A stretch of 64,000 bases of DNA from Patescibacteria group bacterium (GTDB taxonomy: Bacteria; Patescibacteriota; Minisyncoccia; Phycocordibacterales; UBA918), in the NCBI GenBank assembly GCA_040386275.1, contig JAZKFU010000011.1, positions 1,383 through 65,382 of the forward strand. Reading direction: 5' to 3'. Shown one piece after another: positions 46,708 through 64,000 of this stretch (position 1 is its first letter; each line of letters starts with the position of its first letter). The notes beneath the pieces are model-generated. The model worked only from the letters and a program-made list of their open reading frames with translations. It made no database searches and was not told the DNA's origin. A program made the position numbers and the translations under genes.

Positions 46708-47208
46708 TTACCAGCTAACACCGCCTGCTGAATAGACCGCGTACGTATTTGAATCAGTGGTGCCGTTAGCGTACTCGTCTCCCGTGGTAGTAAATTTAAC
46801 TTCAACTGAATCTTTAACCATAAGTTTGTAATCATCACCGCTCGCATCAGTGCGGTACATAAATCCTTGCCCAGCGGTGTTTTCACTGCTAGGGTCACGT
46901 GGTAACGCGGGAATGTAATCAGGAACTAACCCCGTAATATAATCGGTACAACTAGCACTTGCTTCAGCATAACTTCCAGCCGCTACACTACAGCCCGCGG
47001 CTGGGTACCGGTCATTTTGCGCTTTATAAAATTCAATAGCGAGTTGCAGTTCTTTGAGACTAGTTTTTCGAATATCATCACGAGATGATTTGCGCGCTTC
47101 ACCAAAGTTAGCGTAGACAATCGACGACAAAATTCCAATAATAGAGATAGCCACCATGAGTTCAACTAAGGTAAATCCTTTAAAGTGTTTTGAATATTTA
47201 TGTAACAT
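46708..47208 (-). CDS. type IV pilin-like / pseudopilin (prepilin N-terminal methylation motif)
   Basis: MLHKYSKHFKGFTLVELMVAISIIGIL class III signal (G|FTLxE + hydrophobic helix). Confidence 0.6.
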   Translation of the reverse strand: MLHKYSKHFKGFTLVELMVAISIIGILSSIVYANFGEARKSSRDDIRKTSLKELQLAIEFYKAQNDRYPAAGCSVAAGSYAEASASCTDYITGLVPDYIPALPRDPSSENTAGQGFMYRTDASGDDYKLMVKDSVEVKFTTTGDEYANGTTDSNTYAVYSAGGVSW

Positions 47209-47209
47209 A

Positions 47210-47785
47210 TTATGAGCAAATTACGACAGCGGTGTTTGTTTTTACTGAGGCAGGGGTAGTTCCGTCAGCAAACCCACCCCACAGTGCATAGGTTCGTTGG
47301 TAGGTAGCATCGCTCGGACTGCAAACTCCAGTGGTGGTACAGATAGCGGCAGAACTAGTATCACACCGCTTCATAACATGGGTGTTGGTCACCGTTTCTG
47401 CCTCTACCGATCCCACTGCCATTATTTTATAACTAGTCCCTGCAGCGTTCGTAACGTATGAATACCCCAGTGCACTGCCTCGTCTCGAGTCATTGGGCAA
47501 AACCGGAATATACTCGGGAGCTAGCCCGGCGATATACGTCAGACCATCAGCTTCACTTGATAACCCATCACCACCCGGGTATCCCATAGCGGGATACCTC
47601 CCCACTTTTCGTTTGTATTGCTCAATAGCACTCTGGAGGTTTCGCAAATCAGCTTGTCGCTCGATATCGCGCGCGCGTGGGTTGGCACGTCCAACATTGG
47701 CATACACAATAGCCGCTAAAATACTCACAACGGTAATAGTGACTAAAAGTTCAACCAATGTAAACCCAGCGATGCGTCGTTTCAT
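47210..47785 (-). CDS. type IV pilin-like / pseudopilin
   Basis: MKRRIAGFTLVELLVTITVVSILAAIV prepilin motif. Start moved to MKRR (47785). Confidence 0.6.
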   Translation of the reverse strand: MKRRIAGFTLVELLVTITVVSILAAIVYANVGRANPRARDIERQADLRNLQSAIEQYKRKVGRYPAMGYPGGDGLSSEADGLTYIAGLAPEYIPVLPNDSRRGSALGYSYVTNAAGTSYKIMAVGSVEAETVTNTHVMKRCDTSSAAICTTTGVCSPSDATYQRTYALWGGFADGTTPASVKTNTAVVICS

Positions 47786-47862
47786 TGCTACCAGTGTATC
47801 ACGATACAAAAGAGGCACGAGCCTTGGCCGTACCTTCCTGTGCATTATAGGTACAAGCGATT

Positions 47863-51788: not shown

Positions 51789-54700
51789 ATGTCAGAGAAT
51801 TCTTCAATAAAATCAACGTTTGTTCACCTCCACACCCACTCGCACTATACGCTTTTAGGAGCCCTCCCAACCCCCAAAGAACTCGCCAAAGCGGCCAAGG
51901 AAGATGGTCAAGAGGCACTGGCTATTACTGATGCAGGCGCGCTCTATGGAGCAATTGATTTTTATAAAGCCTGCACCAAAGAAGGTATCAAACCAATTAT
52001 TGGTCTTGATGCGTACCTCGCTCCGCGGACGCGCCATGATAAGGAAGCGATGATTGATAAACCGCGCGCGCGAGTAGTACTGTTAGCTAAAACATTTGCC
52101 GGCTATCAAAATCTGATTCAGCTGGTGACGCGGTCAAACTTTGAAGGCTTTTACTACAAACCCCGACTCGATGAGGAGTTACTGAAAGAGTACGCCAAAG
52201 ATTTAATTTGCATCATCCCCTCTTTCGCCGGTGAAGTGGCCCACGCCCTTAAAGATGGCGATACCGAACGTGCTGAACAACGACTTGATTGGTATAAGGG
52301 TGTCTTTGGTGATGATTGTTACCTTGAACTCACTCACCATCCAGCGATGTATGAACACGCCGAAAATCAAAAACGAATTGTGGCGTTAGCGCACAAAACG
52401 AATACCCCACTCGTGGCGGCGCACGATGTGTATTACCTCAAGCCGACCGATAGACTCGCCCGAGCCACGATGCACAAAATTCAAAGTGGTGGAGTAGTTG
52501 ATACCAGTAGCGTCGAAGACGACAATGAGGATTTTAGTTTTATTACTCAAGCCGACGCAGCCGAGCGATTTAAAGATACCCCTGAAGCGTTAACCAACAC
52601 CATCAAGATAGCAGAACAATGTAACGTAGAAATTGAGATTGGTACGCACTGGTATTTCCCTGATTACAAAATTGACTCGGGACGTACCCCGGATGAAGAA
52701 CTCCAAGTAACGGCCTATGAAGGCGTGGCCTGGCGAGGATTATCTATTGAGTCTGAGGAAGTTAAAACGAGACTCGACTATGAGCTGGAGGTAATTAAAA
52801 ACAAAGGCTACGCCAAATACTTCCTCGTGGTAGGTGACTTGCTTCGCGAGTCGCGTGAGCGAGGGATTTTGACAACCATTCGAGGATCAGTGGCGGGCTC
52901 ACTCACTACGTACGTGCTGGGGATTACCAACGTAGACCCCTTGGAATACAAATTACCGTTTGAACGATTCCTTAACCCCGAACGACCATCAGCACCGGAT
53001 ATCGACATGGACTACGCTGATAATCGGCGTGACGAAATTATTGAATACGCCAAATCAAAATATGGTGCTGATAAAGTAGCGCAAATTGGAACCTTCGGAA
53101 CTATGATGGCCCGCGCTGCTGTGCGCGACGTAGCGCGCGCACTTGGTCATCCGTATTCAGTTGGTGACAGACTCGCCAAAATGATTCCGATGGGAAGTCA
53201 GGGATTTGCGATGACTATTAAGCGCGCCATGGAAATTGAGCCGGAGCTGGCCAAACTCTATAAGAGTGACGGTGAGAGTCGTGAAGTACTTGATCTCGCG
53301 CGACAAATTGAAGGGCGCGTCCGCCACCTTGGGGTACACGCCGCGGGTGTGGTTATTGCCCCTGCCCCGTTGTCACAGTTTGTACCGTTGCAACCCGACC
53401 CGAAAACCGGAAAATTTGTGACGCAGTACGAAATGAAATCTGTCGGAGAAGACGGCGTGGGACTACTCAAGTTCGACTTTCTGGGTATTAAAAACCTGGC
53501 GATTTTAGCGGACGCGGTGAAGCGCGTAAAAAAGATTCGTAATGAGGTGGTTGATATTGAAAACATTCCGCTTAATGACCCTAAAACGTTTGCCATTTTA
53601 GCGGCGGGCCAAACGATGGGTCTCTTCCAATTAAATGGTTCGGGGATGACGAGTTTTCTTAAACAGCTCAAGCCGACCAGTATCCACGACATTAACGCGA
53701 TGGTAGCGCTCTACCGCCCGGGACCGATGGAATCAATTCCCCAATACATTGAACGAAAACACAATCCGCAATTGGTGACGTACCTCGACCCGCGCATGAA
53801 AACGATTCTTGATCGTTCATATGGCGTTATTACCTACCAGGACGACGTTATGACGATTGCGCGTGAACTTGCAGGCTACAGCTGGCTTGAAGCTGACATG
53901 TTGCGTAAGGCGATGGGTAAGAAAATTCCGGAGGTGATGGAGGCGGAAAAAGATAAACTCCTCACCGGGTTTGCGAACTTTGGAAAATTACATCCGTCGT
54001 TGGGTGACAAGCTCTGGAAATTGATTGAACCTTTTGCAGCGTACGGATTTAACAAAGCACACGCCGCCTCCTACGGTCGGGTTGCCTACCAAACCGCTTA
54101 CATGAAAGCCAACTACCCAGTTGAATACATGTCTGCGGTGTTAACCGCTGACGCCGGCGACGTGGAAAAGATTTCGGAAATTATTCACGAGTGTGACCGG
54201 ATGGGCATTGAGGTGCTCCCGCCTGATATCAACGAATCGTTTGCCGACTTCTCGGTAGTGCCCGGCACGCAAACTATTCGCTTTGGTTTAACTACCATCA
54301 AAAACTTTGGTGAGGCAATTTCTGAAGCAATTATTGAAGACCGCAAAGCCCACGGCCCGTACACCTCCATGCAGGACTTCTTATCGCGATTAACCCACCG
54401 AAATTTAAATAAAAAATCACTCGAAGCCTTGGTGCTTGTGGGTGCCTTTGATAGTTTCGGAGAACGAGGCTTCCTGCATGCCAACATTGAACACATGCTG
54501 GAGTTTAACCGCGAAAAAGTAGCCGCCCGTGAATCAGCTCAAGACTCACTGTTTGGTATGGGCAGTGGCAGTGTGAGTGACCTCACCTTAACCCCGGCAC
54601 CGCCCGCACCGACCGCGACTAAATTAATTTGGGAAAAAGAGCTGTTGGGAGTATACCTCTCGGGACATCCTCTGGATGCTTTTAAGGAAGAACTCGCCAA

Positions 54701-55025
54701 ACGAGTATCTGTTGAAGCTATCAAAAAAGCCGTGTACGAAAAACAAGAAATTCCTGTCTTGCAAATGAAAGGTTCGCTCGCGACGGCCGGCATCATTACC
54801 GCCATGCGTGAACTCATTACCAAAAAAGGTGACAAAATGGCATTTGTTACACTAGGAGATTTAAAAGACCAAATCGAAATGGTCGCCTTCCCCGAAACCT
54901 ACGCGGAGCAACGAGAACTATTTGTGATTGGTAACTGTATTGCAGTGAAAGGAAAATTAACTATCAGAAACGACGAACCGAGCATTGCGATTGACCGCGT
55001 AAAAGCGCTTGCTCCCAGTACCTAA
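51789..55025 (+). CDS. dnaE: DNA polymerase III alpha subunit
   Basis: PHP domain HLHTHSHYTLLGA, polymerase core, OB fold. 1078 aa. Confidence 0.95.
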   Translation: MSENSSIKSTFVHLHTHSHYTLLGALPTPKELAKAAKEDGQEALAITDAGALYGAIDFYKACTKEGIKPIIGLDAYLAPRTRHDKEAMIDKPRARVVLLAKTFAGYQNLIQLVTRSNFEGFYYKPRLDEELLKEYAKDLICIIPSFAGEVAHALKDGDTERAEQRLDWYKGVFGDDCYLELTHHPAMYEHAENQKRIVALAHKTNTPLVAAHDVYYLKPTDRLARATMHKIQSGGVVDTSSVEDDNEDFSFITQADAAERFKDTPEALTNTIKIAEQCNVEIEIGTHWYFPDYKIDSGRTPDEELQVTAYEGVAWRGLSIESEEVKTRLDYELEVIKNKGYAKYFLVVGDLLRESRERGILTTIRGSVAGSLTTYVLGITNVDPLEYKLPFERFLNPERPSAPDIDMDYADNRRDEIIEYAKSKYGADKVAQIGTFGTMMARAAVRDVARALGHPYSVGDRLAKMIPMGSQGFAMTIKRAMEIEPELAKLYKSDGESREVLDLARQIEGRVRHLGVHAAGVVIAPAPLSQFVPLQPDPKTGKFVTQYEMKSVGEDGVGLLKFDFLGIKNLAILADAVKRVKKIRNEVVDIENIPLNDPKTFAILAAGQTMGLFQLNGSGMTSFLKQLKPTSIHDINAMVALYRPGPMESIPQYIERKHNPQLVTYLDPRMKTILDRSYGVITYQDDVMTIARELAGYSWLEADMLRKAMGKKIPEVMEAEKDKLLTGFANFGKLHPSLGDKLWKLIEPFAAYGFNKAHAASYGRVAYQTAYMKANYPVEYMSAVLTADAGDVEKISEIIHECDRMGIEVLPPDINESFADFSVVPGTQTIRFGLTTIKNFGEAISEAIIEDRKAHGPYTSMQDFLSRLTHRNLNKKSLEALVLVGAFDSFGERGFLHANIEHMLEFNREKVAARESAQDSLFGMGSGSVSDLTLTPAPPAPTATKLIWEKELLGVYLSGHPLDAFKEELAKRVSVEAIKKAVYEKQEIPVLQMKGSLATAGIITAMRELITKKGDKMAFVTLGDLKDQIEMVAFPETYAEQRELFVIGNCIAVKGKLTIRNDEPSIAIDRVKALAPST

Positions 55026-56185: not shown

Positions 56186-56288
56186 AATCAAATGCAGTAC
56201 GCGGCATGGAGAAAAAGAGTTGTGAGCCGTATGCCTATACGGTGAATAAATCTTAGAGGCTCTATAACAAAGTAACGCATTGATTGTG
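56186..56288 (+). repeat. family A repeat, copy 11 (forward), between leader terminator and thrS start
   Basis: gcggcatggag, then GAGCCGTAT-gcc-TATACGGTGA (56224-56245), then ctataacaaagtaacgcattgattg. Outer aatcaaatgc / gcattgatt. Confidence 0.55.
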
Positions 56289-56306
56289 GACGTCTCCCCC
56301 CCCCAT

Positions 56307-58061
56307 ATGGAAAATTCATTACAAAACAAACGACACACTCTCGCCCACCTCCTCGGTGCCGCGGTGTTACAAAACTACCCACACGCCAAACTCACGCTTG
56401 GTCCGGCGATTGATAACGGGTTTTATTACGACTTTGATTTTACGGGCGGACCAACGCTCGGTGACGATGGACTCAAAGAAGTACAGAAGTCGATGAAGAA
56501 AATCCTCAATGGGTGGAATGAATTTTCACACCGTGAAGTGAGTGTTGACGAAGCGCGCACGCTCTACGCCTCTAATCCGTTCAAGCTAGAGCTCGTGAAT
56601 GAAATCGCCGAACGGGGTGAAACCATTACCCTCTATACAGTCGGGGATTTTACCGACCTTTGTCGGGGCGGACACTGTAAACACCCCAACAAGGAGCTCA
56701 ACACCGATGCTTTTAAACTTGATAAAGTAGCGGGAGCTTATTGGCGTGGTGATGAGAAAAATCCCATGCTCACCCGCGTGTATGGCCTGGCGTTTGATAC
56801 ACCAGAAGAACTACATGAGTATCTCACCATGATTGAAGAAGCCAAAAAACGCGACCACCGTAAACTCGGTAAAGAGATGGGATTGTTTTCGTTTTCTGAA
56901 TTAGTCGGTGCAGGACTTCCCCTTTGGTCACCCAAAGGTACTGCACTGCGTCAACGGCTTGATGCCTTTGTGCAAGAACTCCGCGATGCGCGCGGGTACG
57001 AACACGTGACCATTCCCCACATTGCAAAAAAGTCTCTCTACGAAACCTCAGGTCACTGGAATAAATATAGTGAAGACTTATTTAAAGTGAGCGCTAAAGA
57101 AGGTGATGAACACGAAATGTATGTTCTTAAACCAATGAACTGTCCCCACCACACGCAAATCTATGATGCGGTCCCCCGTTCATACCGTGACCTCCCGCAA
57201 CGCTACGCTGAAACTACTATGGTGTACCGGGCAGAACAGTCAGGAGAATTAAATGGTCTGACTCGGGTACTTTCTATCACTCAAGATGACGCACATGTGT
57301 TTTGTCGCGAATCCCAACTACGTGACGAGATTGAAAAAATTTGGGACATCGTCAATGAATTTTATGGAGCGTTTAATTTCAAATTACGCGTCAGGCTTTC
57401 CTTCCATGACCCGGCTGACAAAGAAAAATATTTAGGTGACGCTAGTATCTGGGAAGAAACAGAAAGTCTGATGAAACAAATCGCCACCGACCGCAACGCC
57501 GACTATTTTGAAGGTGTCGGTGAAGCTGCGTTCTACGCTCCTAAACTCGACTTTATGGCCAAAGATTCAATTGGTCGCACCCACCAGGTAGCTACTATCC
57601 AACTCGATCGATTAATGCCAGGGCGGTTTAATTTATTCTGCACCAACGAAAAGGGTGAGAAGGAACCAATCGTTATGATTCACGCTGCTATTGCTGGATC
57701 ACTAGAACGGTTTTTAGCAGTATTGATCGAACACGTCGGCGGGAACTTCCCGCTCTGGCTCGCACCGGAACAAATAAAAATTATTCCGGTGAATGAAGCA
57801 CATATGCCATATGCAGAAAAAGTGTTTGCCGAACTAAAAGCAGCCGGACTGCGCGTAACACTCGATGGCGATAACGAATCAATGGGCAAGAAAATCCGCG
57901 CCGCCAAAACCAACCGCCTCCCCTACTTCATCGTCCTTGGAGATCAAGAAGTAGCCGACCAAACCGTCACCCTAGAAAAACGAGACGGCACCAAACAAGT
58001 ACTCCCCCTGTCAGACCTAACCCTCAAACTAACCACCGAAGTCCAAACCAAAGCCATCTAA
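56307..58061 (+). CDS. thrS: threonyl-tRNA synthetase (lacks N-terminal TGS domain)
   Basis: Editing domain HxxxH...CxxxH-like region. Class II core FRxE, HCPHHTQIYD zinc site. Anticodon-binding C-terminus. Confidence 0.9.
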   Translation: MENSLQNKRHTLAHLLGAAVLQNYPHAKLTLGPAIDNGFYYDFDFTGGPTLGDDGLKEVQKSMKKILNGWNEFSHREVSVDEARTLYASNPFKLELVNEIAERGETITLYTVGDFTDLCRGGHCKHPNKELNTDAFKLDKVAGAYWRGDEKNPMLTRVYGLAFDTPEELHEYLTMIEEAKKRDHRKLGKEMGLFSFSELVGAGLPLWSPKGTALRQRLDAFVQELRDARGYEHVTIPHIAKKSLYETSGHWNKYSEDLFKVSAKEGDEHEMYVLKPMNCPHHTQIYDAVPRSYRDLPQRYAETTMVYRAEQSGELNGLTRVLSITQDDAHVFCRESQLRDEIEKIWDIVNEFYGAFNFKLRVRLSFHDPADKEKYLGDASIWEETESLMKQIATDRNADYFEGVGEAAFYAPKLDFMAKDSIGRTHQVATIQLDRLMPGRFNLFCTNEKGEKEPIVMIHAAIAGSLERFLAVLIEHVGGNFPLWLAPEQIKIIPVNEAHMPYAEKVFAELKAAGLRVTLDGDNESMGKKIRAAKTNRLPYFIVLGDQEVADQTVTLEKRDGTKQVLPLSDLTLKLTTEVQTKAI

Positions 58062-58377: not shown

Positions 58378-60906
58378 CTAGATCTTTGAGGCTAATTCAA
58401 TCATGCGGTCGGTGGTGATAGTAACCCACCCCTCTTCACTCGGGTATGACGCCTTAGCAGCGGTCAAAATTTGAGCGAGAACTGTAGCACGATCTTCGTT
58501 TGCTGTTGCTCCGATAAAGTAAGCAATAGCGTCAGATGAAAGCAATACGTGTTGGGCATGTGCTTGAGCTTCGATAGCTTCAGCGGCAGTAGTGTGAGCT
58601 TCGTAACCTACAACTGCTGTAGTGGGAGCTACTGGTGCTGGCGCTTGGTAAAACGCTGGAGCAGCAGTAATCTTTTCAGGCATAAGTTGTGTACTTGGTA
58701 CGATATCAGAAGTAACTGTAGCCGGAGTAAATGCTGAAGCATTTACTGCGTTACGACGTCCTACTAATACGTATGCCATGTAGAGAGCCCACGCTGCTAG
58801 TAATGTGTAGAATACACTTGTCATAAATGGTCCAGCTTCAAATCCAGTGTATGGAACATTGGTTAGAGCAATTCCAGTAACAAGTGGTTGCTGATCACGT
58901 ACTTGTGTTACCACTACGGTATCTTCAACATCAACACTTACTTTACACGTCTTGTCTCGACTTCCTTTCTCCGCTACCAATGTGTAGGTAGTATCTTTTT
59001 CAGGTCGGAGAGTAATTTCACCGTCGTACAGGTCTTTCTTTTGTGAACTACTCTTTCCGTCAGTATCAATTAAAGTTTTACCGTGATTGTCTTTGATAGT
59101 TACTTCAGTAGCGCGGGTTGTATCCCAAGTAAGGGTTACTCGGTCGCCACGTGAGATACTTTTGTCAGAAATCTTTAGAGTACATTTTGGAGCAGATGAT
59201 CCGCCACCGCCTCCACCACCATTGTTATCTTCGTCAACATTGATGGTAACGGGACAATTAATTGTGTCGTTACCTTTTGTTGCAGTTAAGGTGTAGGTAG
59301 TGTCACTTCGTGGAGAAACTGATACTGAACCATCAAGGTCAGTTGCGTTGATGCCGTTGTTGAAACGAACACCAGTTACTCCCGTTGTATTCCAAGTAAG
59401 CGTTGAACTGTTTCCTTCACGAATTGAAGTTGGACTCGCACTGAAATTTACATTAGCAGCACACGTAATCGCTGCATCTGGTTGATTAACAGTAACGGTT
59501 ACTGGACATGATACTTGTTGGTTATTGCTACCAACACCGGTAAGGGTGTACGTGATAGTTTGTAATGGAGAAACGGTTACGTTTCCATCAACGTTCACAT
59601 TACCAATCGCGTTGTTAATACTAACTGAGTTTACGTTTGTTGTATTCCACGTAAGCACTGAACTTTGTCCACGATTAATTGTTGAAGCGTTTGCTGTAAA
59701 TGAATCACAGATTGGTGAAAGTGGTGTAGGAGTTTCAACGGTAATAGTTTTGTGACACACTGCTTCTACGCCAGCATTGTTTCGTACAGTAAAGGTGTAG
59801 GTTGTTGTATCGTTTGGTGATACTGAACGGTTACCATTTAATGATACAGAACCGATACCTTGGTTGAAACTACCCGTAGCTCCATTTTGAGAAGTCCAGG
59901 TAAGTTCAACTGAACTACCACGAGTGATAGTGTGGGGTGCTCCATTTAATGTACAAACTGGTGTAGGTACATCAGTTACAGTTACTGTTACTGGACAAGA
60001 TACCGTTTTGGCATCTTTTGTTGCAGTTAAAGTGTAAGTAGTTGTGTTAGTTGGTGACACAACTCGTGTACCATCAACAGCTACTCCACCGATACCTTGA
60101 TTGATACTTACGCCAGTAGCGTTAGTAGTTGCCCAAGTCAATGTTGCAGAGTTACCACGAACGATTGATGTTGGATTTGAAGTGAATGAATCACAGATAG
60201 GTAATACTACTGGGTGAGTTACGGGATTTACCGTTACTGAATCAGTACAAGTACCTTTTGCGTTAGTTCCTGTTAACGTTACCGTCACTGGGGTCGTACG
60301 ACCAGCAGGCCAGGTATACGTTTGAGAATCTGAAGCCGCAACAATCTGATTATTTACTCGGTACACAGTACTGTGTGCTGGAGTACCATTCCATGAAATT
60401 GTAAATTGTTGACCATCATTAGCAGCTGTAAGGTTTGTTGTAATATCACAAACCGGTGCTTCAACATATCGGTAAACCGTTACTGTATCTGAACAAGTAG
60501 CACCTGAACTATTTCTTCCTGTAACTGTGAATGTTAGGAAAATATTGTCAGCGTTCCAGGTATAGGTTAGAAATCCTGTTCGCTCTACATCTACACCGCC
60601 TACTTTGTAGGTACCGGTTGAACCGTTACTCCAAGAAATTGTGTATTGTTCTCCTGGATTAACATATTGTTTGTTTGCTGAAATATCACAAACTGGAGCA
60701 GGAATAGTTGTATTTCCGCCTCCATCATTGCCTCCACCTCCCGCTATATCACCACCTCCGGTTGATCCGCCTCCACAATCTGAACAGCCCGTACCGCCTC
60801 CGCCGGTAACTTGCGCTGAAGCGTTGTTAGCGTAAGAAAAGGCAGCCACAAATAACATGGCCGTGAGTACTGTTGCAAAACTAATTTTTTGAATAGTTGA
60901 TGTCAT
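58378..60906 (-). CDS. large cell-surface protein: signal peptide, Gly-rich region, ~7 tandem ~90-aa Ig-like repeats, TM anchor preceded by VPYTG (LPXTG-like), ~140 aa cytoplasmic tail
   Basis: Repeats each carry conserved Cys pair and TYTLTA / SCPVTVTV motifs. NVPYTGFEAGP + hydrophobic helix + GRRN. Confidence 0.7.
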   Translation of the reverse strand: MTSTIQKISFATVLTAMLFVAAFSYANNASAQVTGGGGTGCSDCGGGSTGGGDIAGGGGNDGGGNTTIPAPVCDISANKQYVNPGEQYTISWSNGSTGTYKVGGVDVERTGFLTYTWNADNIFLTFTVTGRNSSGATCSDTVTVYRYVEAPVCDITTNLTAANDGQQFTISWNGTPAHSTVYRVNNQIVAASDSQTYTWPAGRTTPVTVTLTGTNAKGTCTDSVTVNPVTHPVVLPICDSFTSNPTSIVRGNSATLTWATTNATGVSINQGIGGVAVDGTRVVSPTNTTTYTLTATKDAKTVSCPVTVTVTDVPTPVCTLNGAPHTITRGSSVELTWTSQNGATGSFNQGIGSVSLNGNRSVSPNDTTTYTFTVRNNAGVEAVCHKTITVETPTPLSPICDSFTANASTINRGQSSVLTWNTTNVNSVSINNAIGNVNVDGNVTVSPLQTITYTLTGVGSNNQQVSCPVTVTVNQPDAAITCAANVNFSASPTSIREGNSSTLTWNTTGVTGVRFNNGINATDLDGSVSVSPRSDTTYTLTATKGNDTINCPVTINVDEDNNGGGGGGGSSAPKCTLKISDKSISRGDRVTLTWDTTRATEVTIKDNHGKTLIDTDGKSSSQKKDLYDGEITLRPEKDTTYTLVAEKGSRDKTCKVSVDVEDTVVVTQVRDQQPLVTGIALTNVPYTGFEAGPFMTSVFYTLLAAWALYMAYVLVGRRNAVNASAFTPATVTSDIVPSTQLMPEKITAAPAFYQAPAPVAPTTAVVGYEAHTTAAEAIEAQAHAQHVLLSSDAIAYFIGATANEDRATVLAQILTAAKASYPSEEGWVTITTDRMIELASKI

Positions 60907-61043
60907 AAATAATAACTTTGATTTAATAATGTAACCTACACCGAATTTCTTCGGATGAAAAAGATTGTTCGTTGGAACAATCTCTCAGAATCCGAATTGA
61001 TTCTTGAGATTGATGAGGGCATCTTTCGACGCCCTCTTCATGT

Positions 61044-61391
61044 TTATTGCCAGTCTGGCTGCCATCTTCCGTCAACGCGACGGTTGATGAATTTCTTGCC
61101 TTCGAGTACAGCCCACTGGTAGTCCCAATGGATTTTGCCGTCACTTCCGAGGAAGCAAACGGCCTGATTGCCCGTCGGCGCAGTGTGCACTGCTCGTGGA
61201 TCCTGGCATGCGATTTTCGTGTACGGACCACCAGCGGGTCCAATCACACAATACTCGACATGCCACACCGGCACTTTTACCCCTTTTCCCACGCCAGTTG
61301 GATCGTTGCAGTTGACCCCACACGCCATCGCCATACCTGCAAACAGAGTGAGCACACTGGCGAGGATGCCAACACGATAAGTTTTTTTCAT
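61044..61391 (-). CDS. small secreted Cys-rich hypothetical protein (in GC-rich islet)
   Basis: Signal peptide MKKTYRVGILASVLTLFAGMAMA. Local GC clearly above window average. Confidence 0.45.
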   Translation of the reverse strand: MKKTYRVGILASVLTLFAGMAMACGVNCNDPTGVGKGVKVPVWHVEYCVIGPAGGPYTKIACQDPRAVHTAPTGNQAVCFLGSDGKIHWDYQWAVLEGKKFINRRVDGRWQPDWQ

Positions 61392-61516
61392 TATGGCCTC
61401 CTGCCATGTTGAATTGAGTTGTACTCCTATCAAAGAACTAAAGGAGCGTTTACCCAAACAGTGTATCATAACGAACAGTATTTGTCAATACAATACGGTT
61501 ATTGTCAAATATAGTA

Positions 61517-61552
61517 AAAGGCCGGTATCCAAAAGATATCCGGCCTTCTTTG
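61517..61552 (-). terminator. hairpin terminator between the two GC-islet genes
   Basis: aaaaggccggtatcc-aaaag-atatccggccttcttt. Confidence 0.55.
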
Positions 61553-61568
61553 TGACGCAACCTCCTCC

Positions 61569-62105
61569 TTAGAAGATGTCGACGCCGTCATTGCCACCGT
61601 TGGTGGTGTCGCCCTGGGTGCCCTCATCAGGTTGAGCATCCGATTGCGTTGCCCCTTCAGCGGTGACCGAATCGGCCTCATCGTCGGAATCGCCATCGTT
61701 GTTAGTATCAATGACGCCATCATGGTCGACGACCGGACCTGGATCAATCGTCTCGACGGAACCGGGCGGAAGATCGAGATCTGCCGCCACTTCTTCGGCC
61801 GTTTGGCCGGTGTGGGTTCCTTGCTTCACGGTTGTGGTGGTGCCACCGCCGCCATTCTGCTTGGTGCACGTAATCCGAGTCACCACGCCGCCGATCGTGA
61901 CATATTTGCCTTGCCGATCGACATCGTAGCGCGCCGGACCAGCTTTCATGGTCGCCATTCCGCAAATCCTCTTGATCGGAATGGCATACGCCACACCGTC
62001 GGAAATGAGAACGTTCTGAGTCCCTTGTCCGGTATCAACCGTCAAGGCTGACGCGAACGAGGTCGACATGACGGCGAATAGAATCGCCAAAAGAACTTTC
62101 TTCAT
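61569..62105 (-). CDS. secreted hypothetical protein with Gly/Thr stretch and strongly acidic Asp-rich C-terminal tail (in GC-rich islet)
   Basis: Signal peptide MKKVLLAILFAVMSTSFASA. C-terminal DTNNDGDSDDEADS... Confidence 0.45.
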   Translation of the reverse strand: MKKVLLAILFAVMSTSFASALTVDTGQGTQNVLISDGVAYAIPIKRICGMATMKAGPARYDVDRQGKYVTIGGVVTRITCTKQNGGGGTTTTVKQGTHTGQTAEEVAADLDLPPGSVETIDPGPVVDHDGVIDTNNDGDSDDEADSVTAEGATQSDAQPDEGTQGDTTNGGNDGVDIF

Positions 62106-62200
62106 CACTGTTCTCCTTATGTTATGGATTGTGAATTTCACACCGAGACCATCCTCGGCTTACCCTACTACTGTATCATACTAAATCATTTCTGTCAACA

Positions 62201-62225
62201 AAAAAGCCCCTAGTTAAGGGCTTTT
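62201..62225 (-). terminator. sortase-gene terminator overlapping its stop codon
   Basis: Minus strand aaaagccc-ttaacta-ggggctttttt. Confidence 0.6.
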
Positions 62226-62887
62226 GTTGAAACGAGCGTAGCCTCGACCACATAGCGGTCCTCGGTACTTCCAAAACTATTACACGTAACTAACGTAAGG
62301 GTTTTCCCCTTCCCCGCTACCGGGACAGTAAAACCAGAGGCTTTTACTTTAAAGGATTTTTCTACCTTATACGTATAGGCAGTGTTTTTTGAATGTACCG
62401 TTATTACATCACCCCATTTCAGATTCTGAATACCATTTAAGGCTTGAAAATTACGGTTATGGACCGTTGGGAGGTAACTTGAGTGACCAAGGATAAACAT
62501 CGTGCCTTCGTCAGCAAACGTGGCCGAATCGGGGTGACGAATCACGCCTTTAAGTAGCGCCGCATCAAGCGCTGCCACTGAATTAGAAGATGGATTTAAT
62601 ACCGGGACGGTTCGACTAAGCGCAGGGATAAGAAGGGTTTGTGGCAAAGTATCTGATCCAATAGTTGAAACTGTTTCAGTTTTTGGAGTCGTCGTTGCTA
62701 CCGCAGGTTTAGGAGTGGTGGTGGTTGCAGCTGCTACGGTAGAAGTAGCCGATGTTGTAATTGGCTCAGGATAAAAATCTAGAGCGTATAAAATACCGTA
62801 CGACACGGTAAAGATACAGAAAAAAGCTATGAGAAACGCAATTTTATTGGCCATAATTTGATCGATTATATGTTCGAGCTTTTTCAT
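62210..62887 (-). CDS. sortase-family transpeptidase (membrane-anchored)
   Basis: N-terminal TM anchor. Catalytic TLVTC motif (TLxTC). His region MFILGHSSY. Thr/Ala-rich linker. Confidence 0.6.
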   Translation of the reverse strand: MKKLEHIIDQIMANKIAFLIAFFCIFTVSYGILYALDFYPEPITTSATSTVAAATTTTPKPAVATTTPKTETVSTIGSDTLPQTLLIPALSRTVPVLNPSSNSVAALDAALLKGVIRHPDSATFADEGTMFILGHSSYLPTVHNRNFQALNGIQNLKWGDVITVHSKNTAYTYKVEKSFKVKASGFTVPVAGKGKTLTLVTCNSFGSTEDRYVVEATLVSTKALN

Positions 62888-63007: not shown

Positions 63008-64000
63008 ATGGAAAAAAATACGGATACCAAGGGTAAGGAAGGAATATTAAAAGTACTAGCAATTGGTGGATTTATTGGTCTCATTATTATAATTGCCTGG
63101 CTCGGGATTCAACTTATTAGTTTTATGCCGTCGGCCTTCACCTCACTCGCCTCGTTAGCTGATAGTGTCTACAACTACAAACCAGTAGAAATTGTGGTGG
63201 TAAGTAATACATCAGTAGCTAACTCAGGTGAATCGTTTACACTCTCATGGAATAAACCAAAGCAAGACGGAACCTTTACGTTTACCTACAAATGTACCGA
63301 GGGAGTGTCAGTTGAATTACGCTCAAAGCTTGATGAAATTGAAACGGTAACGTGTGACCAACCCTATGATATTGGTGCCGTAGATACTATTGATCTCAGT
63401 GTTAACTCAGAACGAAATCGTTTTACAGAAATTCCCTACACCCTTGCCTTTATTCCGTCTAAGTCAGATGATCCTGCTGCTACCACTGACAAAACAATTA
63501 CCGTTGTAAACGCCATGATTTCACCGGTAGCAGTTGGAGCGACAACTACACCTGAAGTTATCACCCCTGACCCAGAACCAGTAGTAGTAGTTACCCCAAC
63601 TCCGAACCCAAAGCCCGTTACTCCAACTCCAACGCCTACCCCTACCCCAACTCCAACCACTCCTAAACCAGTTACGCCAAAGCCGGTAACTGTCAGTACT
63701 CCAATCTATGGTATTCCAGTTTCTAATCCAAATGGATTCACCGATGTGGGAACTCGTATCCTCGCCGTGGGCACACTCACTAGCAATGATCGATTCACTG
63801 CCGCTAACGTTATTGATAACGACGAGCAAGGAGCGATTCAATTCGAAATTAAAAACTTTGGTACCAAAACTTCAAATTCATTTACCTACACTGTCTCACT
63901 TCCAAATGGAACAGAATACAAAAGTTCATCACAATCAGGTCTCAAACCAAACGAACGCAGTGTCGTAACAATTGGTTTTGAAACCAATGACATGACCGGC
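63008..64000 (+). CDS. partial CDS (continues past window end): membrane-anchored surface protein with Thr/Pro-repeat linker
   Basis: ATG 63008. N-terminal TM helix ILKVLAIGGFIGLIIIIAWLGIQLI. ...TPTPNPKPVTPTPTPTPTPTPTTPKPVTPKP linker. No stop before window end, so it is absent from the ORF track. Confidence 0.55.
   Translation, partial: MEKNTDTKGKEGILKVLAIGGFIGLIIIIAWLGIQLISFMPSAFTSLASLADSVYNYKPVEIVVVSNTSVANSGESFTLSWNKPKQDGTFTFTYKCTEGVSVELRSKLDEIETVTCDQPYDIGAVDTIDLSVNSERNRFTEIPYTLAFIPSKSDDPAATTDKTITVVNAMISPVAVGATTTPEVITPDPEPVVVVTPTPNPKPVTPTPTPTPTPTPTTPKPVTPKPVTVSTPIYGIPVSNPNGFTDVGTRILAVGTLTSNDRFTAANVIDNDEQGAIQFEIKNFGTKTSNSFTYTVSLPNGTEYKSSSQSGLKPNERSVVTIGFETNDMTG

Follow-up and report, generated by a model that had tools for sequence, protein, structure and literature searches.

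Two orphan families of small secreted proteins in a sortase and adhesin locus of Patescibacteria

Mosaic surface-protein loci that recombination has shuffled between conserved flanks are a familiar feature of bacterial genomes, the pneumococcal PspA/PspC-type loci being one example. Recombining bacterial genes are also known to have a higher GC content at third codon positions (GC3), an effect of GC-biased gene conversion. Here we compare such systems, together with Gram-positive sortase/pilus loci and classical genomic islands, with a locus on 64,000 nucleotides of DNA from a Patescibacteria group bacterium (assembly GCA_040386275.1, contig JAZKFU010000011.1, positions 1,383 to 65,382; hereafter, the window). 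Two GC-rich genes on the minus strand, gene A (61044-61391) and gene B (61569-62105), lie there between a sortase gene and an adhesin gene. A sequence-only reading of the DNA, made by a model, had described them as a GC-rich islet of ~1.2 kb and a candidate cassette acquired from a high-GC partner organism. Our analysis indicates instead that A and B are probably native to a conserved surface locus of a Kaiserbacteria-like patescibacterium and specific to its clade, and that their alleles have been exchanged among related lineages. Five members make up the locus: a membrane protein of ~350 amino acids, the sortase, slots B and A, and an adhesin with immunoglobulin (Ig)-like repeats that the sortase probably anchors.

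The locus type is already known from Gram-positive bacteria, and what is new here is the presence in it of two orphan protein families. As in Gram-positive sortase/pilus loci, a sortase with catalytic motifs stands beside a large Ig-repeat surface protein, the adhesin has an xPxTG-form motif followed by a membrane helix and basic residues, and small accessory genes belong to the cluster. Unlike in those loci, neither of the small proteins has a sorting signal, pilin motif, or E-box; the adhesin has VPYTG as its putative signal, with an extra domain of ~140 to 250 amino acids past the helix; and the organism is a patescibacterium. Classical genomic islands share with A and B a local anomaly of GC and GC3 within ~1.2 kb that has sharp borders. 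However, A and B come without an integrase, tRNA, or direct repeats and occupy the same site in all relatives; their anomaly is common to those relatives and scales with host GC, and the normalized signature is not clearly deviant. PspA/PspC-type loci are similar in their conserved flanks and regulatory DNA, in alleles that are discordant with the flank phylogeny, in domain mosaicism, and in a breakpoint at a linker. They differ in that A and B belong to orphan families unrelated to theirs and stand in two adjacent single-gene slots with their own promoters and terminators, in that one slot can take a nonhomologous protein, and in the persistent GC3 surplus. GC-biased gene conversion would match the specific rise of GC3 in A and B, the genes with allele exchange, and the shift toward G- and C-ending codons alike; for A and B it is a candidate cause only, with expression-linked selection as the alternative.

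The surface locus and its relatives in Patescibacteria

The gene order of the window is GyrB, the divergent ~350-amino-acid membrane protein, sortase, (B), A, Ig-repeat adhesin, ThrRS on the opposite strand, a small open reading frame (ORF), DnaE, and RNase HII. The same order was found in at least 12 independent Patescibacteria assemblies (Kaiserbacteria/Parcubacteria-like) and in every contig long enough to reveal the gene context. These related loci or contigs carry L-numbers (L001 to L030) below, those from L001 to L021 coming from independent studies, and proteins carry P-numbers; a scan of metagenome contigs added almost no further loci. Elsewhere, the window is ordinary chromosome and carries genes for RpoB/C, RpoD, DnaG, DnaE, ThrRS, SMC, S16, and TrmD.

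Protein searches covered 5.8 billion clustered proteins and 1.84 billion representatives, as well as phages, plasmids, and IMG/VR. They returned ~50 clusters of A homologues and ~35 B-family proteins, all without annotation. Source names, where present, were Patescibacteria, Parcubacteria, Kaiserbacteria, or Minisyncoccia, and no A or B homologue among the 5.8 billion and 1.84 billion proteins could be placed outside the Patescibacteria clade. (The NCBI names of Kaiserbacteria metagenome-assembled genomes presumably encode GC contents of ~38 to 59%.) No relatives of A or B were found in phages, plasmids, or IMG/VR, and a mobile-element origin was rejected for lack of such matches. Matches of the B profile to two giant proteins (P0077 and P0081) were repeat or low-complexity artifacts.

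The GC excess of the two genes is a family trait as well. It was tested in 10 A loci and 9 B loci with background GC of 0.43 to 0.53, which are not phylogenetically independent of one another. The A slot exceeded its local background by a mean of +0.073 and the B slot by +0.099; amino acids alone would give +0.042 and +0.041 of these, respectively. GC3 lay +0.10 over expectation in 9 of the 10 A loci (Wilcoxon P = 0.006) and +0.176 over expectation in all 9 B loci (Wilcoxon P = 0.004), and B GC3 scaled with host GC3 with a slope of 1.4. In their GC excess, A and B of the window are typical of their relatives. Since the excess occurs in nearly every lineage and tracks host composition, a recent foreign origin does not fit and a persistent local force is needed.

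These results run against the acquisition from a high-GC partner that the sequence-only reading had suggested: orthologues stand in the same context (sortase, B, A, adhesin, ThrRS, DnaE), and the GC excess is found in relatives, too. The reading had itself named clear orthologues in the same context in relatives as the observation that would speak against acquisition, and such orthologues are what we found. The protein search that it proposed turned up only Patescibacteria among the proteins with a name or genomic context. Its description of a cassette holds insofar as ORFs appear to be swapped among related lineages within the clade, not as an import from outside.

Composition and transcription of the two genes

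Composition was judged against the window as background (mean GC, 0.445; 540-nucleotide windows, standard deviation [SD], 0.029) and, at gene level, against the 42 other genes of the window. GC is 0.540 in A, 0.570 in B, and 0.533 over 61044-62105. The 540-nucleotide peak of the whole 64 kb, 0.581, lies at 61541, and the next-highest peaks reach 0.526. The gene-level z scores for GC are +4.1 (A) and +5.3 (B), and GC3 is 0.56 in A and 0.63 in B versus 0.41 ± 0.056 in the 42 other genes, whose maximum is 0.55. The excess ends at the ORF borders of both genes. The spacer between them (61392-61568) is AT-rich, with a GC of 0.407, so that the "islet" is two GC-rich ORFs and not one homogeneous block.

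When A and B were redrawn with the codon usage of the window, the expected GC was 0.50 for both, compared to observed values of 0.547 and 0.574, respectively; roughly half of the excess is therefore due to amino acid composition. The high GC at the first and second codon positions (GC1 and GC2) in A and B comes from Gly, Ala, Asp, Glu, Val, Thr, and Pro. In the B tail, GC1 is 0.74 because the codons for Asp, Glu, Gly, Ala, and Val begin with G. GC3 lies above the codon usage expectation by +3.1 SD in A and +6.2 SD in B, and the codon shift is general, with C- and G-ending codons increased (including GGC, GTC, TTC, TGC, CCG, TCG, ACG, and GCG). The GC excess is thus about half amino acid composition, and the rest is a GC3 surplus tied to the slots, including those with unrelated occupants.

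The composition-normalized signature of the A+B segment is not extreme, at the 87th percentile of the window for dinucleotide delta* and the 96th percentile for tetranucleotide distance; the strongest signature outlier in the window is the adjoining adhesin gene. Many overlapping ORFs cover the segment on both strands, and they are by-products of composition; the frames of A and B show no unusual conservation at synonymous positions. An alternative-frame gene in the B tail, where a +1 ORF is open in several loci, was rejected, as four-fold identity was 0.45 in the tail and 0.45 in the sortase. The sequence-only reading was thus right to see a segment visibly richer in GC than the rest, since it is the highest-GC spot of the window and deviates in GC3 as well, and right about the overlapping spurious ORFs. 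The codon usage comparison that it proposed agrees (the GC3 offsets of +3.1 and +6.2 given above). Its single ~1.2-kb islet, however, resolves into two GC-rich coding sequences separated by the AT-rich spacer, and the sliding-GC and tetranucleotide check that it also proposed found an outlier in GC, although the normalized signature was not extreme.

A and B form separate transcription units: each has a sigma-70-type promoter close to consensus, a structured leader, and an intrinsic terminator of its own. The A promoter region (61460-61508, minus strand) contains TTGACA-N17-TACACT with an upstream TG (61488-61460; core, GTATTGACAAATAC) and a second TTGACAA box 20 nucleotides upstream (61508-61502). 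The B promoter (62170-62198, minus strand) is TTGACA-N17-TACAGT, also with an upstream TG, and directly follows the sortase terminator. Within the 64 kb, the exact pattern TTGACA-N14-TGATACANT is confined to two places, upstream of A and upstream of B. This promoter pattern recurs at both slots in L008, L013, L014, and L018 and at the B slot in L019 and L021; in L018, the conserved A-slot promoter drives an ORF unrelated to A. The B promoter block, GGGGCTTTTTTG-TTGACAGAAA..TATGATACAGTAGTA, is 85 to 98% identical in L013, L008, L021, and L018.

The 5' leader of A (61392-61459, minus strand) has a 5' hairpin, GCUCCU...AGGAGU, around a conserved GUUCYUUGA (fold z = -2.9), and its Shine-Dalgarno sequence, AGGAG, is placed in the loop of a second hairpin (AUGGC/GCCAU). 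Relatives keep the pairing with stems of other sequence, namely, UUGCC/GGCAA in L021 and GCGC/GCGC in L009 and L001; RNAalifold gave no consensus for the A leader on a MAFFT alignment that was itself poor. The B leader (62106-62169, minus strand) forms the hairpin CCGAGGAUGGUCUCGG, and by inspection the same place is taken by other stems in relatives (TCGGGgaaggCCCGA in L013 and CGGCGAatcgGTCGCCG in L001). Both leaders are conserved at these positions across L001 to L021. An Rfam search of the leaders found no family match; a Thr_leader match on the opposite strand, with 22 bits versus a gathering score of 55, was taken as chance.

The intrinsic terminator of B (61514-61551, minus strand) is a hairpin, GAAGGCCGG...CCGGCCUU, with a GGCCGG stem, followed by UUU. 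Its minimum free energy is -25.5 kcal/mol (z = -4.2), and 0 of 200 shuffles were as stable. The terminator region of A (60957-61036, minus strand) holds two hairpins (61015-61036 and 60957-60986) with a U-run after the second (z = -7.3) and is 90 to 95% identical to those of L013, L008, and L021. Each gene has its own terminator, as the sequence-only reading had stated, and each terminator includes a U-run.

In the public annotation, A (P0001, 141 amino acids) starts from an ATG at 61469, which precedes the predicted -10 box (61465-61460). The homologue alignment and an AGGAGG 8 nucleotides before 61391 favor the 115-amino-acid form over the 141-amino-acid form.

Exchange of slot occupants and the GC3 surplus

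Conservation across the locus is uneven. In sliding nucleotide comparisons of the window with L013, L008, L021, and L018, identity was 0.85 to 0.98 over the sortase terminator and B promoter, 0.60 to 0.78 over the A promoter, and 0.77 to 0.95 over the A terminator and the region upstream of the adhesin. Most of the A and B coding sequence reached 0.3 to 0.6, and the intergenic blocks overall reached 0.73 to 0.98.

The N-domain and the tail of B point to different relatives. The N-domain is 80 to 84% identical to those of L021 and L019, whose sortases are only ~67 to 69% identical to that of the window, but only ~28 to 40% identical to that of L013, whose sortase is 93% identical. In L008 (sortase, 88% identical), the N-domain was not detected by BLAST, and the slot protein is a remote B relative (hhalign, 94%). 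The B tail, on the other hand, is 82% identical to that of L013 and absent from L021 and L019, which have another tail type. Between the window and L021, four-fold identity is 0.71 in the B N-domain (n = 28) versus 0.33 in the sortase (n = 82; Fisher P = 7e-4), and the mosaic breakpoint seems to fall at the GGGG linker of B.

The A alleles, too, are at odds with their flanks. Compared to L008, A has 85% protein identity and an identity of 0.37 at four-fold sites; amino acid identity so far above synonymous-site identity marks a real coding gene. Compared to L013, four-fold identity of A is 0.19 versus 0.52 in the flanks (P = 4e-4). L013 and L008 have sortases that are 92% identical but A proteins that are only 60% identical, and overall A identity tracks sortase identity weakly (Spearman coefficient, 0.38). 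In L018, the A slot holds a protein unrelated to A (hhalign probability, 1.5%) with a GC3 of 0.635 versus 0.419 in the sortase. In L017, it holds a different, Cys-containing protein of 196 amino acids with no tblastn match with A and a GC3 of 0.421 versus 0.319 in the sortase. Together, these comparisons support an exchange of alleles at the slots among related Patescibacteria.

ThrRS (56280-58061) and DnaE (51789-55025) of the window are 80 to 82% and 79% identical, respectively, to those of L001 and L005, whose sortase is ~53% identical, whereas ThrRS is only 68% identical to that of L013, whose sortase is 93% identical. This discordance suggests that the surface locus and the housekeeping flank may differ in history.

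In the mechanism that we propose, ORFs would be replaced or recombined between related lineages while the regulatory blocks stay more conserved than the ORFs. The recombination joints appear to sit in the conserved regulatory blocks and in the GGGG linker of B, and the outcome would be slots that hold diverged, mosaic, or nonhomologous small secreted proteins. The GC3 surplus would then be kept up by a persistent local force and not by foreign origin, the cause that we prefer being recombination-associated GC-biased gene conversion at an exchange-prone site. A more specific version, which we regard as a rather doubtful conjecture, has A and B as two "expression slots" whose promoter-leader and terminator blocks serve as homology arms for swapping ORFs, or half-ORFs at the GGGG linker, thereby diversifying host contact molecules; the GC3 surplus would be the footprint of biased gene conversion, left even on unrelated occupants.

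It is also possible, although somewhat unlikely, that the surplus reflects selection at synonymous sites, with highly expressed, long-lived mRNAs favoring GC-ending codons and avoiding AU-rich RNase sites. The near-consensus, conserved promoters, the stabilizing 5' hairpins, and the strong terminators of both genes are consistent with such selection, as are the stop of the excess at ORF borders and the surplus in unrelated ORFs behind the same promoter, but S16 and RpoB/C have average or low GC3. The codons themselves point both ways: Phe, Cys, Asn, Ile, Gly, and Val show an enrichment of C-ending codons, whereas Asp, His, and Tyr show no preference for them. Compared to synonymous shuffles, mRNA folding had z scores of -1.4 and -1.7 versus -2.2 for the sortase control. 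Selection for mRNA structure is accordingly not supported, folding being no stronger than in the shuffles.

Several observations weigh against the reading of A and B as native genes exchanged within the clade and against the causes proposed for their composition. The AT-rich spacer between A and B does not share the GC excess, and the loci of the family-wide GC test lack phylogenetic independence. Between two strains that are 97 to 98% identical, A is identical, with no sign of extra recombination at strain level. On the expression side, S16, the only ribosomal-protein gene in the window, has a GC3 of 0.36, which counters simple translational selection, and we infer the high expression of A and B from the quality of their promoters. 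Finally, A and B had no match in Pfam, NCBIfam, PHROGs, or PADLOC (none below an E value of 0.1); searches with PDB profiles gave nothing better than an E value of 1.4, and the best Foldseek matches in PDB (E values of 0.64 for A and 3.8 for B) are noise.

A single-nucleotide polymorphism (SNP)-free tract of 1282 bp lies over the islet in the strain comparison. A recent sweep was rejected as its explanation, since comparable tracts of 1424 and 898 bp occur elsewhere and the pattern is generally patchy.

Gene products, neighboring proteins, and significance

Both protein families are orphans. The ORF and the homologue alignments define protein A as a secreted protein of 115 amino acids. Its N terminus, judged by inspection, as was that of B, has the pattern MKK, hydrophobic stretch, AxA (MKKTYRVGILASVLTLFAGMAMA followed by C), with cleavage after AMA and before Cys. 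Of 48 A-family members, 33 have an AxA-like sequence just ahead of the first Cys, and 0 have a strict lipobox, [LVI][ASTVI][GAS]C. Protein A contains five Cys residues, of which C28, C48, C62, and C79 are invariant and C24 is nearly so; further conserved residues are His69, His88, Asp84, Lys86, and Trp43/89/110/114. The AlphaFold2 (AF2) model shows an all-beta mature domain of ~92 amino acids with a mean predicted local distance difference test (pLDDT) score of 80 and scores of 88 to 98 in most 10-residue blocks of the mature domain. On these features, A is probably a compact, disulfide-bonded, Trp/His-rich beta domain that serves as a binding module. Foldseek matches of A to the OB-fold-like ribosomal protein S12 and CspE had E values of ≥0.6 and were set aside as noise. 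The C terminus, RRVDGRWQPDWQ (...RWQPDWQ), has no hydrophobic segment.

Protein B, likewise defined by its ORF, homologues, and alignments, is a secreted protein of 178 amino acids. On the minus strand, it comprises a signal peptide (residues 1-20, 62046-62105), a small beta N-domain with two Cys residues (residues 21-84, 61854-62045), a GGGG-containing linker (residues 85-94, 61824-61853), and a disordered acidic tail (residues 95-178, 61572-61823). The signal peptide again shows MKK, a hydrophobic stretch, and AxA (MKKVLLAILFAVMSTSFASA followed by L). The AF2 model gives a pLDDT of ~80 for the N-domain and <55 for most of the tail. The last 84 residues include 22 Asp/Glu and 0 Lys/Arg, and the C terminus is the conserved ...TNGGNDGVDIF, without a hydrophobic segment. 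Compared with the DxDxDG calcium loop, the tail segment DTNNDGDSDDEAD fits by eye at D1, N3, D5, G6, and D9, with Ala at position 12; there was no Pfam repeat match.

Across the B family, the N-domain falls into several types that are hardly related to one another, and in some members a lipoprotein signal stands in its place. A lipobox-type Cys occurs in some members (LSAC, LAGC, and LIAC in P0035, P0073, P0078, and P0079), but B of the window has no Cys at the cleavage site and thus no lipobox. The tails fall into at least three types by their conserved C-terminal tips (...GVDIF, ...PSIDG, and ...PPMF). In the arrangement that we envisage, an acidic disordered tail with a DxNxDG-type motif and a ...GVDIF tip would be hung from a small beta domain in B of the window, with a lipid anchor in other members. 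A weak match between A residues 25-64 and B residues 44-82 (hhalign, 76%; E value, 2e-5; 39 columns), which covers the Cys...Cys segment of each, suggests that the A and B slot families may be very distant paralogues. In a direct comparison, A and B were unrelated to the Ig repeats of the adhesin.

We infer that A and B are Sec-exported. Their probable place of action is the cell surface, where they would join the adhesin in contacts with a host or partner cell, a role that the allelic diversity of A and B fits. The sequence-only reading had likewise called A a Cys-rich secreted protein and B a secreted protein with an acidic tail, and both descriptions stand, as does its placement of a sortase next door.

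The sortase gene (62210-62887, minus strand; Pfam PF04203, 3.9e-20) encodes 225 amino acids with an N-terminal membrane anchor. Its catalytic motifs are present in the translation, with the Cys in (L)TLVTC, the His in GHSSY, and the Arg in DRYVVEA; matches to NCBIfam class D and class E are weak, and all class models fall below the cutoff. The large surface adhesin (58378-60906, minus strand) has 842 amino acids with a signal peptide, a Gly-rich stretch, and tandem Ig-like repeats of ~80 amino acids with one Cys pair each (weak Pfam Ig-like match). Toward its C terminus, VPYTGFEAGP is followed by a membrane helix, GRR, and a C-terminal domain of ~140 amino acids. VPYTGF(E/D)AGP, the helix, and RR/KK were found in 8 of 8 orthologues whose C-terminal 230-residue view reaches the site (of 10 viewed, L001 and L017 begin downstream). 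The adhesin is likely to be a sortase substrate.

In the C-terminal part of the adhesin (58378-58900) and across the orthologues (in L001, L004, L005, L008, L009, L012, L013, L015, and L017), the domain after this putative sorting signal is 130 to 250 amino acids long, conserved, and Ala-rich (...AHAQHVLLSSDA...KASYPSEEGWV...), which is unusual for a sortase substrate. It is probably cytoplasmic, and sortase cleavage would leave it behind in the membrane. The synonymous bias of the adhesin gene runs opposite to that of A and B: its GC3 is 0.27, where 0.42 is expected (z = -9.8), and in tetranucleotide usage the window has no stronger outlier. In most relatives, the orthologues of the adhesin gene are likewise AT-rich at third codon positions, so that neighboring genes have opposite, conserved offsets in codon composition. 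Compared to the window, the strain that is 97 to 98% identical (L029/L030) is without one Ig-like adhesin repeat of ~77 amino acids (59730-59956; 765 versus 842 amino acids). SNPs between the strains are strongly clustered, with 9 in 34 bp at 60511-60544, for example, and nearly all synonymous, which suggests patches of gene conversion.

The sequence-only reading had raised the prospect that the small proteins supply substrates to the sortase. It now seems quite improbable that A, B, or both serve the adjacent enzyme as substrates or as pilin-like subunits to be polymerized or anchored to the wall. Their position between the sortase and the surface adhesin in every lineage would suit such a role, and A offers an invariant Lys, K86, in GSDGKxHWD. 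However, the C termini of A (...RWQPDWQ) and B (...GGNDGVDIF) lack an LPXTG-like motif with a membrane helix and basic tail behind it, and the adjoining 842-amino-acid adhesin holds the only sorting signal in the locus.

The remaining member of the locus, the divergent membrane-anchored protein of ~350 amino acids (63011-64000, plus strand, running past the end of the window), has beta domains and a Pro/Thr-rich linker, with no Pfam family above threshold. It is 81% identical to the L008 orthologue and was found at the same place in L001, L004, L005, L015, L017, L018, and L021. Beyond it in the gene order, GyrB has an intein in L008 (3612-7049) and L018 (1852-5283) but not in the others examined; these proteins have 1143 to 1145 amino acids, and PF14890 (Intein_splicing) was recorded in L018. 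Elsewhere in the window, two adjoining genes at 46708-47845 (minus strand) have N-terminal methylation (type IV pilin-like) motifs, which fits a pilus-based lifestyle of Patescibacteria.

A recent import of 1.2 kb from a high-GC organism outside the clade, such as the host of an episymbiont, appears highly improbable. The segment is the highest-GC spot of the window, with a deviant GC3 and a general codon shift as if from a genome of ~57 to 60% GC, but every relative examined has orthologues in the same slot, and the excess runs through the family and rises with host GC. The searches of the protein collections, phages, plasmids, and IMG/VR produced no homologue placeable outside the clade. No tRNA was found in the 64 kb, repeats flanking A and B are at chance level, and the neighbors are the sortase, adhesin, and ThrRS genes, with no integrase. 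The dinucleotide signature is inside the variance of the window (87th percentile), and the intergenic regulatory DNA is 73 to 98% identical to that of relatives. That the islet is an artifact, either a chimera of metagenome assembly or spurious ORFs in GC-rich noncoding DNA, is almost inconceivable: the source is a metagenome-assembled genome and the segment has many overlapping ORFs, but more than 10 independent assemblies show the same arrangement, a strain that is 97 to 98% identical among them, and strong protein-level conservation with diverged synonymous sites indicates real coding.

Considering A and B as native members of an exchanging locus, the interest of these results is moderate and chiefly for biologists of the candidate phyla radiation (CPR). 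They carry a caution for island detection, as a sharp GC island in a CPR genome can be an old resident, produced by amino acid content and a local, persistent synonymous bias. If the reading as slot exchange with gene conversion is true, a GC3 surplus could flag other diversifying loci in uncultivated lineages. Little is understood of the molecular biology of episymbiotic Patescibacteria, and the five-gene surface locus gives candidates for host attachment or host specificity.

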